Assembly (NCBI GenBank): GCA_050942955.1
Contig: JBMNOG010000008.1
Span: 1 to 59,842, forward strand
DNA length: 59,842 nucleotides
Source: Patescibacteria group bacterium
Lineage (GTDB): Bacteria > Patescibacteriota > Microgenomatia > UBA1400 > UBA1449
Direction: 5' to 3'
Shown here piece after piece: positions 13,127 through 44,006 of the stretch (the first letter of the stretch is position 1; the number at the start of each line of letters is the position of its first letter). A program made the position numbers and the translations under genes. The notes beneath the pieces are model-generated. The model did not search any database. It worked only from the letters and a program-made list of their open reading frames with translations, and was not told the origin of the DNA.

Positions 13127-14404
13127 CTATTTTTTAACTTTGATAATCTCTTTTCCTATAAAGGATTGTAATACTTCAGGCACTTTAATACTCCCATCTG
13201 CTTGTTGGTAGGTTTCCATGATAGCAATAAGGATTCTTGGGCTGGCAAGAGCGGTGTTGTTGAGCATATGAACATACTTAAGCTCACCGTCTTTAGTTCT
13301 ATAGCGAATGTTCGCCCTGCGTGCCTGAAAGTCTCCCATCACTGAGTCTGACATAGTTTCACCGTAAGCTTTTCTACCGGGCATCCAGGTTTCGATGTCA
13401 TATTTCTTAACTTGCGGTTCTCCCATATCACCGGTACACATAAGCATGACTCTGTAGGCAAGCCCAAGCTCTTGAAGCATTTCCTCTGCGTATTGTCTTA
13501 ATTTTTCATGCCAGGCAAAGGATTCTTCCCAGTCGTTTTTACACAAAATTACCTGTTCAACCTTTGTAAACTCATGGATTCTATACATGCCCTGAGTATC
13601 TTTACCATAACTGCCGATCTCTCGTCTGTAGCACTGACTGTAGCCGGCATAGAGTTTTGGCAGGTCTTTTTCGTTCAAAACTTCGTCCATATGGTACGAA
13701 ACTAGTGGAACTTCAGCAGTGCCGGCCAAGTATCGTTCATCAAGTTCCTTTTCATCATCAAATGTCTTATAGACATCCACTTTTCCCCAGGGAAAGTGGG
13801 CCGTGTTAACAAAAGGTCTTTCCTGCAAAATAACCGGAGGTATAAATGGGACAAAGTCTTTTTCAACCATTTTTTTGAGAGCATAATTCATGATAGCCAA
13901 ATGAAGCAAAGCCCCATCGCCTTTGAGGTAGTACCCCCGAAATCCGGCTACTTTTGCACCTCTTTCAAAATCAACAATATTTAGGTTTTGTGCCAGGTAG
14001 AAATGATCTTTAGGTTCAAAATCGAACTGTGGTTTTTCTCCCCAGCTAGCTATCTCTACGTTATAGTTTTCATCCGGTCCAACCGGCACAGACTCATGGG
14101 GGATATTGGGGATTTGGAGCATAAGTGAAGAAAATGTTTCTTCAGCAGTTCTCAGCTCCGGCTCTAGCTGGGCTAGTCTATCTCTTAGTTCTCGACCTTT
14201 GTTTATTACTTCCTGACTGGGTTTTCCAAAAACTCCCTCCATAAGCTTATTCCGTTCAGCTCTTACCTTTTCCACTTCCTGGATTAGATTTCTTCGGGTT
14301 TGGTCGACTTTAAGCAGTTCATTAACTACATCCGGTACACCTTTGTTATGAGCGGCTTTTTTAACTAAATCCGGATTTTCTCGTATAAACTGAATATCTA
14401 ACAT
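13127..14404 (-). CDS. serS: Serine--tRNA ligase
   Basis: MLDIQFIRENPD, LAGTAEVPL, YRREIG, RIHEFTKVEQ, QARRANIRY. Confidence 0.97.
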   Translation of the reverse strand: MLDIQFIRENPDLVKKAAHNKGVPDVVNELLKVDQTRRNLIQEVEKVRAERNKLMEGVFGKPSQEVINKGRELRDRLAQLEPELRTAEETFSSLMLQIPNIPHESVPVGPDENYNVEIASWGEKPQFDFEPKDHFYLAQNLNIVDFERGAKVAGFRGYYLKGDGALLHLAIMNYALKKMVEKDFVPFIPPVILQERPFVNTAHFPWGKVDVYKTFDDEKELDERYLAGTAEVPLVSYHMDEVLNEKDLPKLYAGYSQCYRREIGSYGKDTQGMYRIHEFTKVEQVILCKNDWEESFAWHEKLRQYAEEMLQELGLAYRVMLMCTGDMGEPQVKKYDIETWMPGRKAYGETMSDSVMGDFQARRANIRYRTKDGELKYVHMLNNTALASPRILIAIMETYQQADGSIKVPEVLQSFIGKEIIKVKK

Positions 14405-14410
14405 ATAAAA

Positions 14411-14463
14411 AAGTTAAGAAGTAAGAATAAAGAAGAAAGCTTCTTTTCAAACTTCTAATCTTC
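14411..14463. repeat. Heptamer-periodic inverted repeat in the serS leader
   Basis: TAAGAAG TAAGAAT AAAGAAG followed by the complementary CTTCTTT...ACTTCTAA. Confidence 0.5.
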
Positions 14464-14479
14464 ACCTTACTTTACCATT

Positions 14480-14636
14480 AAAAACACCGCCGAACCTAAC
14501 TAAACAGGCCATTTGGCGGTGCCACCGTTTTTTATACTTAATTCCTGCTGTTACGGGCTTACCCGGACTTGCATTTCCTCAAGTCAACGTTTCCGTTTTG
14601 CCGGAATCAGGAGTTGGATTCTCCCTCAAACGTTTT
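14480..14636 (-). promoter_or_regulatory. T-box riboswitch (Ser), transcription-attenuation type, with ultrashort Stem I
   Basis: Antiterminator AAACGG-UGGCACC-GCC AAAU GGC-CUGUUU; terminator CACCGCC/GGCGGUG + U5; specifier UCC at 14616-14618; directly upstream of serS. Confidence 0.85.
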
Positions 14637-14650
14637 TATAGTCTTTAGAT

Positions 14651-14679
14651 ACTATAACACTATTTTGCCTGATTTTCGA
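14651..14679 (-). promoter_or_regulatory. Sigma70-type promoter for the T-box/serS leader
   Basis: Extended -10 TGtTATAGT (14651-14659); -35-like TCGAAA at 17-nt spacing. Confidence 0.55.
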
Positions 14680-15139
14680 GAATTAGCAGGGCTTTTTTAA
14701 CAAACTTCAGTGTTTTTGGTAATGTTTCTAACTTACGGATTTCTTCCAGAGAAAACCAACCCATATCATTGTTTTCTTTTTCCAGAAGCTTGGGTATCTG
14801 ATCACCAAGAGATACAATGTAAGCTATTAAAACTAAGTGAGTATTGTTTTTAACTCCGTGTATTTTCTTATTCCAGGTATTTACCTCAACTATTGGATTT
14901 GGAGAAATGATTTGAGGAGTAACGCCAAGCTCTTCCTGAAATTCTCGAACAAGTGTTTGCTCAGAAGTTTCTCCAAATTCCAAACCGCCGCCGGCAAGCT
15001 GCCACTTATTATGAAAAATTGGCCCTGTAGGAGAATGACGTCTGGTTAGAAAAAATTCCCAGCCTTTGCTGTTTTTTCTAACAGGTAAACCGAGTATCCC
15101 TACGATAATTTGGTTGTAGTTTCTTAACGTATTCTTCAT
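14660..15139 (-). CDS. NUDIX hydrolase
   Basis: NUDIX box GGGLEFGETSEQTLVREFQEELG. Confidence 0.92.
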   Translation of the reverse strand: MKNTLRNYNQIIVGILGLPVRKNSKGWEFFLTRRHSPTGPIFHNKWQLAGGGLEFGETSEQTLVREFQEELGVTPQIISPNPIVEVNTWNKKIHGVKNNTHLVLIAYIVSLGDQIPKLLEKENNDMGWFSLEEIRKLETLPKTLKFVKKALLILENQAK

Positions 15140-43638: not shown

Positions 43639-43994
43639 TGCTTTAAAGATAGGACAATGGCTCTTGGTTTTGCGTAGCAAAACCAAGGGAGGAAAGTCCA
43701 GGCAGCAGGAAACAGAGTGGTCTGTGCAAGCAGGCACCGTCTTAACAAGGCGGCTAGTTAGAGCAACAGTGACGAACTCTCGTTCTGCAAAGAACTGAAG
43801 AGGTGAAACGCTGACTAAGGGTCAGACCTTTTATTCTTAATTGAATGAAAGAGTGGCAATCCTCCTTGCTGCAATCTTCGACCGATTCGCATAAGGATGT
43901 TTCCCCGATCTTGCGCAAGCAAGGCGAATCAAAGTTAGAGAGCTTAGAGAAATCATTGTCTTAAACAGAACCTGGCTTACGTATCTTTAAAGCA
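43639..43994 (+). ncRNA. rnpB: RNase P RNA
   Basis: P1 TGCTTTAAAGATA/TATCTTTAAAGCA; GAGGAAAGTCCAGG and AACAGAACCTGGCTTA (P4); P2, P3 and P6 pairings; TGaTATAAT promoter at 43625-43633. Confidence 0.95.
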
Positions 43995-44006
43995 TGTAAA
44001 GAGGAA

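Follow-up and report, generated by a model that had tools for sequence, protein, structure and literature searches.

Can a T-box leader whose Stem I stops after 5 bp sense its tRNA in time to decide whether RNA polymerase reads on into the downstream gene? This question is raised by a stretch of 59,842 nucleotides (contig JBMNOG010000008.1 of the Patescibacteria group bacterium assembly GCA_050942955.1), the whole of which is called the window here. In section 6.2 of the review PMC7583486, a long Stem I platform is described as generally required by transcriptional T-boxes, and only translational ones are said to be able to dispense with it; the reason given is that capture of the tRNA has to precede the arrival of RNA polymerase at the terminator, the time limit being set by transcription. 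In the window, a T-box leader without such a platform occupies positions 14480-14638 of the minus strand, within a 255-nt spacer between a NUDIX-domain open reading frame (ORF) and serS. A preliminary description, made from the sequence alone, had proposed a minimal serine T-box with an ultrashort Stem I and a transcriptional terminator, and every element that it listed was found in its place on the minus strand by sequence reading. The leader is almost certainly a tRNA-Ser T-box, to judge from its sequence, and there is a high probability that it senses tRNA-Ser(GGA) on a stripped-down scaffold and controls serS by transcription attenuation.

Anatomy of the serS leader

The elements of the leader are listed in Table 1. 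The 5-bp specifier hairpin ends in a 7-nt loop that places the serine codon UCC at its apex, as had been proposed, and a tRNA-Ser(GGA) is encoded in the genome. The discriminator base of this tRNA is G, which stands opposite the UGGC of the antiterminator bulge, and UGGC is complementary to its GCCA-3'. The preliminary reading of a IIA/B-like stem CGGGU/GCCCG was correct in that IIA is present together with IIB; the 5-bp stem itself had to be given up, because it leaves a 2-nt loop, and the helix is CGG(G)/(C)CCG. An internal specifier loop, an S-turn, an AG bulge and a distal loop are all missing from Stem I, and the leader therefore has no elbow-binding platform. Stem III is also absent, a feature beyond the preliminary list: the 16-nt linker is unpaired, and the Rfam T-box model RF00230 aligned 0 nt of the leader to its 17 Stem III positions. 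The side hairpin inserted at the K-turn, called hairpin B, may be likened to a k-junction, as it extends the K-turn by a helix on the non-bulged strand. The terminator and the antiterminator have positions 14521-14502 in common and are mutually exclusive, with predicted energies of -17.8 and -6.0 kcal/mol, respectively, which would be typical of a T-box with 'off' as its default state.

At the Rfam gathering thresholds, no T-box was reported in the whole window, the only match being RNase P. With permissive thresholds, RF00230 was aligned to the leader from end to end with 22.3 bits against a threshold of 93 (E 0.0045 in a 371-nt search), 90 of the Stem I model positions being deleted and 40 nt present. 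The leader is thus recognisable as a T-box yet lies far outside what annotation would accept, and the earlier expectation that a standard model misses the element was borne out. Folding of the whole leader gave z = -3.04, and only 1 of 200 shuffled sequences folded as well. The minimum free energy structure of the whole leader, in which CUGAUUCC pairs with GGAAUUAAG and both P1 and hairpin B are broken, was set aside since this pairing is not kept in relatives.

Table 1 Features of the serS leader and its surroundings in the window (lettered sequences are given as RNA, the promoter-like site as DNA)
Feature	Position	Strand	Details
Stem I domain	14586..14634	-	P1, UUU bulge, tandem GA/GA, specifier hairpin, inserted side hairpin
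P1	14634-14631 / 14589-14586	-	AACG / CGUU
UUU bulge	14630-14628	-	
Tandem GA/GA	14627-14626 opposite 14608-14607	-	K-turn-like
Specifier hairpin	14609..14625	-	5 bp; GGGAG 14625-14621 / CUCCU 14613-14609
Specifier loop	14620-14614	-	7 nt, AAUCCAA; specifier UCC 14618-14616, then A14615
Inserted side hairpin (hairpin B)	14591..14606	-	UUCCG-GCAAAA-CGGAA; on the non-bulged strand of the K-turn, 5' of the P1 3' strand
Stem II	14566..14585	-	reduced to a 6-bp hairpin, GACUUG-AGGAAAUG-CAAGUC
Stem IIA	14565-14554	-	CGGG-UAAG-CCCG, then UAAC-AGC
IIB pseudoknot	G14558-C14547, C14557-G14548	-	minimal, 2 bp; IIA and IIB together span 14547..14565
Linker	14546-14531	-	16 nt, unpaired; contains the conserved UAAGU box 14540-14536
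Antiterminator	14502..14530	-	A1 AAACGG 14530-14525 / CUGUUU 14507-14502; A2 GCC-AAAU-GGC 14517-14508
Antiterminator bulge	14524-14518	-	7 nt, UGGCACC
Intrinsic terminator	14480..14521	-	CACCGCC 14521-14515 / GGCGGUG 14491-14485, then U5 14484-14480
serS (regulated gene)	13127..14404	-	TIGR00414, 459.7 bits vs cut-off 301.65; Pfam Seryl_tRNA_N and tRNA-synt_2b
Promoter-like site	14651..14679	-	TCGAAA, 17-nt spacer, TG-TATAGT; transcript start would fall a few bases 5' of P1
NUDIX-domain ORF	14660-15139		borders the leader's 255-nt spacer opposite serS

The promoter-like site is weak alone, as one such site was found against 1.0 expected from shuffles, which is no better than chance; in the relatives L048 and L055, TTGACA-17-TATAAT was read in the equivalent position. 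The 75-nt spacer from the U-run to the serS ATG (14405-14479, minus strand) is A+U-rich and contains a weak AAGAAG-CUUU-CUUCUU hairpin. A terminator-like site on the plus strand (14515-14529) proved to be the near-palindromic bulge/A2 sequence read backwards, and sub-threshold matches of the region to IMES-4 (23.2 bits vs 48), FopS and other models were taken as chance. The RNase P RNA of the window is of bacterial class A (43642-43995, plus strand) and matched its model over the full length with 118.3 bits (threshold 100).

Specifiers, discriminators and downstream genes

The assembly comprises 1.13 Mb in 45 contigs and is 97.9% complete. The nearest seryl-tRNA synthetases (SerRS; up to 71% identity) come from metagenome-assembled genomes named Dojkabacteria, Beckwithbacteria, Collierbacteria, Gottesmanbacteria, Woesebacteria and Roizmanbacteria, that is, from the Microgenomates group of the candidate phyla radiation (CPR)/Patescibacteria, some of the records bearing plainly wrong automatic names. 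By its size and its SerRS relatives the genome is CPR-like, as had been suspected. RF00230 gave four sub-threshold matches in this genome (34.5, 27.5, 22.3 and 17.6 bits), and all four precede synthetase genes, namely glyS, aspS, serS and thrS. Their small loops read NN-codon-AA: UCUGGCAAG (GGC), CUGACAA (GAC), AAUCCAA (UCC) and ...UCACCAAC (ACC). Among the 43 tRNAs found by Aragorn, tRNA-Thr(GGU) and tRNA-Gly(GCC) both have the discriminator U, opposite UGGA in the respective leaders, and tRNA-Asp(GUC) has G opposite UGGU, which allows wobble only. Both specificity determinants of a T-box, the specifier and the discriminator, are accordingly found in four leaders of one genome.

The Asp leader (L002 432-589, contig C33), 5' of aspS, is a sister of the serS leader in its architecture, including the side hairpin and a terminator followed by U6. 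The Thr leader (L004 ~1590-1732, contig C15), 5' of thrS, is the weakest of the four matches; it has the loop ACCUCACCAAC (ACC-A), a UGGA bulge, a terminator followed by U8 and a IIA-like GGC-AAACCA-GCC hairpin with a CC/GG pseudoknot partner, and it lacks Stem II. The Gly leader (L001 ~895-1040, contig C35), 5' of glyS, carries the specifier GGC and a UGGA bulge and lacks both Stem II and IIA/B; Rfam's alignment of its Stem I had a low posterior probability and was not trusted. By eye, the same plan without Stem II was seen at 8 of the 29 glyS loci of relatives (L166, L168, L178, L179, L184, L186, L187 and L189): a Stem I of ultrashort type, its 5-9-nt loop showing GGC-A, is followed by a linker, mostly by a Stem III (none in L184) and by an antiterminator with UGGA. 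Lacking, as it seems, both the platform and Stem II, glyS leaders of this kind are apparently even more minimal. A TGGTACC at L174 in the same survey was not a T-box.

Relatives with Stem II were collected with a covariance model (R1) built from 12 leaders, that is, ten serS relatives and the Ser and Asp leaders of the window's genome. R1 contains P1 (3 bp), Stem I (5 bp), Stem II (6 bp) and IIA (4 bp) and ends at UGGNACC because the MAFFT alignments A1-A3, which were left out of all counts, misaligned hairpin B/Stem II or the antiterminator region; for the antiterminator and terminator, a script was used instead. Re-searching 81 sources gave alignment A5 with 79 matches, representing 78 distinct leaders. 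The downstream gene was defined as the first ORF of at least 120 aa; the ORFs were clustered by BLAST and named with NCBIfam through the member itself or a representative. The matches preceded serS (21 leaders), ileS (15), bacterial aspS (4), a non-discriminating-type AspRS gene (7), proS (6), valS and alaS (2 each), and trpS, argS and class I lysS (1 each). The others stood before a PspA-like phosphatase gene (9, the representative scoring below its cut-off), archaeal-type PEP carboxylase (2), a serA-like fusion, an aspartate aminotransferase and a BshB1-like deacetylase (1 each), and unnamed ORFs (4), and no ORF was found for one leader.

After one duplicate row and eight leaders without a clear amino-acid label had been dropped, 70 leaders remained for the specifier count. 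The specifier fitted the downstream gene in 49 of the 70 by rule A, which was fixed from the four leaders of the window's genome and takes the triplet followed by two loop bases, and in 56 by the purine-anchored rule B, chosen after the loops had been seen. Permutation of the labels gave a mean of ~17.5 and a maximum of 28 in 5000 permutations. The specifiers matched to their genes were UCC and AGC for Ser, AUC for Ile, GUC for Val, GAC for Asp, AAC for Asn, CCC for Pro, GCC for Ala and CGC for Arg, to which UGG (Trp), CCG (Pro) and AAA (Lys) can be added by eye; ACC and GGC occur before thrS and glyS of the window's genome. The number of separate retunings, to about 12 amino acids, is more telling than the counts. 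The fourth base of UGGN also followed the amino-acid class among the 78 leaders: Ser C24/U6, Ile U15, Pro U6, Ala U2, Val U2, non-discriminating AspRS C7, Asp U4/C1, and A in the single leader with a UGC (Cys) loop. These bases fit the usual discriminators of the tRNAs concerned; in the window's genome, those of the Ser, Thr, Gly and Asp tRNAs were read directly. The proposal that loop triplet and bulge base track the downstream gene thus held in the relatives.

Several leaders precede genes other than those for synthetases. All nine phosphatase leaders (L087, L088, L090, L103, L107, L110, L117, L016 and L040) and the serA-like leader L108 carry UCC. The phosphatase is a histidine-phosphatase similar to PspA, a phosphoserine phosphatase, though its 175.6 bits stay below the cut-off of 350; its gene lies just upstream of serS in L016 and L040, and the gene of L108 encodes a phosphoglycerate dehydrogenase fusion. 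These positions suggest that, in these reduced genomes, tRNA-Ser controls genes for the supply of serine. Similarly, GAC leaders before an aspartate aminotransferase gene (L097) and an archaeal-type PEP carboxylase gene (L136) would link oxaloacetate and aspartate supply to tRNA-Asp charging; the leader of the second PEP carboxylase gene (L115) has the loop CUCAA, which does not fit Asp. A UGC (Cys) leader with a UGGA bulge (L105) was observed before a BshB1/LmbE-like deacetylase gene, and CGC (Arg) loops before three ORFs without an NCBIfam match (L122, L123 and L139). In L102 (1042-1205), before a non-discriminating-type AspRS gene, AAC (Asn) takes the place of GAC, which would be sensible if the limiting substrate of that AspRS were tRNA-Asn.

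Conservation and distribution of the short architecture

Among the 78 distinct leaders of A5, 94.0% of the cells in paired positions were standard pairs against 63.7% after shuffling, 17 of the 18 pairs had changed on both sides, and the covariation score was 0.699 against 0.148 for shuffled alignments and at most 0.142 with the partners slid; since A5 was fitted to R1, the pair counts are inflated, and kinship among the leaders inflates the shuffle and permutation tests. The specifier hairpin showed covariation at 5/5 pairs, with 98.3% of the cells paired; the ultrashort Stem I with an apical specifier claimed earlier is supported. Stem II showed double changes at 6/6 pairs (88.1% of the cells paired), and the three pairs of P1 had 17, 14 and 2 double changes. 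Stem IIA was nearly invariant. The two IIB pairs join the last loop G to the C of AGC and the 5'-most C of the IIA 3' strand to the G of AGC; they were standard in 75/78 and 74/76 leaders, with double changes numbering 3 at one of them and 5 at the other.

The surroundings of the specifier were kept to a varying degree. GA was found 5' of the specifier hairpin in 47/69 leaders and GA or AA 3' of it in 62/69; the specifier loop measured 7-8 nt in 46/69, with U at position 2 in 19/27 and A at position 6 in 24/27. At the site of the side hairpin, an insertion of at least 12 nt was present in 12/69 leaders, its sequence not being conserved. Stem II was a plain hairpin with a loop of at most 10 nt in 42/78 leaders. 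The preliminary statement that Stem II has no obvious S-turn holds for the serS leader and does not extend to the relatives, as 23 of the 36 whose Stem II is long retain the motif GAA...UA(G/A). In 60 of 68 end-aligned leaders, at most 42 nt separate IIA from the end of the bulge, too few to accommodate a Stem III.

On the window's genome, R1 found the Ser and Asp leaders only (97.9 and 88 bits); the Gly and Thr leaders were missed because they have no Stem II. In a sample of 151 genomes of the class, R1 gave 62 matches in 43 genomes, including the window's, at E <= 1e-3. In a sample of 151 genomes of the phylum, 16 genomes including the window's had matches, 12 of them from other classes. The 8 aligned matches from other classes all keep the short Stem I, and 7 of them have a longer Stem II, which carries GAA...UA(G/A)A in 5 of these 7. 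At serS loci, R1 matched 17/80 at E <= 5e-4; this count replaced that of a plain TGGNACC scan (16/80), in which at least three hits were coding sequence (L039, L078 and L082).

RF00230 matched 74/151 genomes of the class sample at E <= 1e-3 and 8/151 above its threshold. None of the 62 class-wide R1 matches coincided with an over-threshold RF00230 match. The three over-threshold matches that were inspected (L156, L159 and L160; 96-113 bits) show the AGAGA and GGUUGGUGA-type motifs of a long, canonical Stem I, together with a Stem III; the genes after them are an acetolactate synthase-like gene, argG and an unnamed ORF. Canonical long-Stem-I T-boxes therefore coexist with the short form in its class, even in the same order, and the short form is a separate variant rather than the only T-box form of the lineage. 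The biosynthetic-gene T-boxes might be of separate origin from the short synthetase leaders. Standard tools do detect T-boxes in CPR genomes; the one they miss is the short form that serves synthetases. The earlier remark that no described T-boxes were known from this lineage agrees with a literature search of partial coverage; in these 8 genomes, T-boxes as such are nevertheless visible to the Rfam model.

Proposed mechanism, alternatives and significance

With canonical transcriptional T-boxes (RF00230; Bacillus subtilis tyrS and glyQS), the short form shares the GA/K-turn base, a specifier followed by a purine, the order of Stem II and IIA/B, the UGGNACC bulge, an antiterminator competing with a terminator and U-run, the bias to NNC specifiers and the control of aminoacyl-tRNA synthetase and amino-acid metabolic genes. 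It differs in a Stem I that stops at 5 bp and lacks the interdigitated T-loop platform for the tRNA elbow, and the serS leader differs also in the missing Stem III, a Stem II that is a plain hairpin and a score far below threshold. In the actinobacterial ileS T-boxes, the specifier is located in a terminal loop. These translational T-boxes (Mycobacterium ileS; 'class II' of TBDB) also share with the short form a platform-less Stem I with Stem II and IIA/B directly after it, as well as the discriminator core. Unlike them, the short form has an intrinsic terminator in place of a Shine-Dalgarno sequestrator, usually lacks Stem III, often has a hairpin as Stem II, and occurs in Patescibacteria before genes of ~12 amino-acid classes including metabolic ones, not essentially before ileS alone. 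The Gly leader and the 8/29 glyS loci resemble the glyQS-type T-boxes without Stem II or IIA/B in running from Stem I over a linker and mostly a Stem III to the antiterminator. However, the described glycyl T-boxes rely on a long Stem I platform according to the consulted part of PMC11297988, whereas the Patescibacteria glyS leaders appear, by eye, to have neither platform nor Stem II. The serS leader carries the features by which the T-box mechanism is defined. With respect to RF00230, the platform, Stem III and a sufficient score are lacking, and with respect to the translational class the sequestrator is lacking; the serS leader is hence a variant and not a plain member of either class. As predicted from its sequence, it is the decoding module of the actinobacterial form joined to the expression platform of the canonical form, with Stem III lost.

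In the mechanism that we propose, the K-turn-based Stem I of the nascent RNA would end after 5 bp in its 7-nt loop, which would present UCC followed by A for pairing with the anticodon GGA. The Stem II hairpin and the IIA/B pseudoknot may buttress the codon-anticodon helix, by analogy with the actinobacterial ileS T-boxes. A bound tRNA that is uncharged would pair its GCCA-3' with UGGC in the bulge and stabilise the weak antiterminator, and RNA polymerase would read into serS; with a charged tRNA, or none, the much stronger terminator would form and transcription would stop at U5. We infer that the tRNA is bound, that Stem II and IIA/B play this part and that the decision falls during transcription. 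The preliminary assignment of a transcriptional terminator as expression platform is in line with the relatives, in which a later script, replacing a first one that was too strict, found a run of at least five U within 75 nt after the bulge in 70/78 distinct leaders (median 39 nt) and an uninterrupted stem of at least 5 bp abutting it in 63 of these 70. Besides, AGGAGG lies between the U-run and ATG in L041 and L056, so that the hairpin does not sequester the ribosome site there. The architecture, thus, very probably reflects transcription attenuation, with termination predicted at U5.

A number of observations weigh against this reading. In the consulted part of the review PMC7583486, contact with the tRNA elbow is held to be generally needed by transcriptional T-boxes. 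The Stem II loop AGGAAAUG of the serS leader has no recognisable AGUA/GAA S-turn, and an extension of IIB beyond its two pairs is unsupported: three further pairs were standard in only 16/78, 28/77 and 40/77 leaders, and the four-pair stretch 245-250/264-267 was 51.3% paired overall. With no recognisable S-turn and only 2 supported IIB pairs, the affinity that the leader would need without elbow contact is harder to account for. A U-run is missing in 8/78 leaders. Rule A missed 21/70 specifiers; most of the misses were low-scoring matches with Stem I unaligned by R1 (L111, L119, L126, L131, L134 and L143) or had other loop lengths, in some of which the right codon and purine are visible (UGG-G before trpS, CCG-A before proS and UCC-A in L095), and the unexplained ones include L135 and L141. 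Six leaders with G handles owe their serS label, and 8/9 leaders their phosphatase label, to BLAST clusters of which one representative was scanned. To these are added the late choice of rule B, the wobble in the Asp leader and the inflation of the pairing statistics, as given above.

One alternative is that the tRNA is sensed as described and that the 3' hairpin acts on translation or mRNA stability and not by premature termination, in the manner of the actinobacterial translational T-boxes with their likewise ultrashort Stem I. The ultrashort Stem I T-boxes covered in the consulted parts of PMC7583486 and PMC11297988 are all translational, the kinetic argument of the former implies that, without a platform, a T-box would be too slow to decide while transcription proceeds, and translation control is hard to judge in the window itself, where reading of 14405-14479 revealed no evident Shine-Dalgarno sequence ahead of the serS ATG. 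On the other hand, the alternative hairpin is G+C-rich with U5 directly after it, and the U-runs of the 70/78 leaders compare with roughly one in ten expected by chance (an estimate); the serS ATG is 76 nt downstream of the U-run, and AGGAGG of L041 and L056 comes after the U-run and outside any hairpin. We therefore regard control at these later stages as unlikely.

It is more doubtful still that the side hairpin at 14591-14606 replaces the distal platform by contacting the tRNA elbow or variable arm, in which case the element would not be truly minimal. Its place at the K-turn would suit such a role, since a third helix could extend from there alongside the tRNA, and similar insertions are present in the Asp leader and some relatives. 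However, these insertions occur in 12/69 leaders only, range from 15 to 43 nt, have unrelated loops and no T-loop-like motif, and a close serS relative (L006) has no side hairpin at all. Least probable is the reading of the leader as the non-functional remains of a canonical T-box in decay. A score far below the Rfam threshold, the loss of several canonical modules and the reduced state of CPR genomes could be taken as signs of decay, against which stand the retention of the reduced architecture throughout the class and outside it, every helix showing compensatory changes, the retuning of specifier and UGGN to about a dozen amino acids and the intact terminator/antiterminator pair. A tRNA-Ser T-box acting by transcription attenuation, thus, remains the preferred reading of the serS leader.

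A bolder extension of this reading is that Patescibacteria own a T-box lineage that offers its 'codon' on a mimic of an anticodon stem-loop, to which the 5-bp stem and the 7-nt loop with its frequent U at position 2 and A at position 6 would correspond, holds the tRNA by a loop-loop kiss resembling that of two anticodons, without elbow contact, and takes its decision co-transcriptionally even though Stem III is usually missing and, in the glyS leaders, Stem II as well. We put this forward tentatively, as an idea that may well turn out to be wrong.

As for novelty, we lean towards the view that the combination of an ultrashort Stem I with a terminator is undescribed. The 2015 abstract of Sherwood and colleagues is said to call 'many', not all, of the ileS leaders with reduced Stem I translational, and a terminator-bearing ultrashort form may therefore already be in print. 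A literature search of partial coverage yielded no paper linking T-boxes with CPR, Patescibacteria or Microgenomates. Among the matches listed for riboswitch and 'candidate phyla radiation', 'T-box' was absent from the title and the start of the abstract, and it occurs 0 times in PMC11665869. In the consulted parts of the review PMC7583486, intermediate or 'ultrashort' Stem I's are assigned to translational T-boxes, mostly of Actinobacteria; PMC11297988, likewise consulted in part, agrees and adds a partial compensation by Stems II and IIA/B. According to the consulted text of PMC7778990 (TBDB), the class II model was searched only in Actinobacteria and in class I matches with a truncated Stem I, and the supplements of that work (the class II model and the truncated-Stem-I set) may bear on the novelty of the form.

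Platform-less T-boxes without Stem III and with intrinsic terminators across a bacterial radiation make the kinetic argument found in section 6.2 of PMC7583486 directly testable, possible explanations being slow or pausing polymerases, high tRNA levels or a faster decoding module. If the kiss of an anticodon-like loop proves true, it would overturn the need for a Stem I platform in transcriptional T-boxes and define the smallest natural tRNA-sensing riboswitch. In practical terms, Rfam-threshold annotation overlooks most T-boxes in these genomes, and the leaders, about 100-160 nt long, offer compact natural scaffolds from which switches responding to tRNA could be engineered. The specifiers also hint at functions of unnamed CPR genes, as where Ser, Asp, Arg and Cys leaders precede genes other than those for synthetases. 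The short T-box form, apparently undescribed and widespread in its class and beyond, would be the first regulatory RNA logic found, in the literature searched, for amino-acid homeostasis in CPR bacteria.

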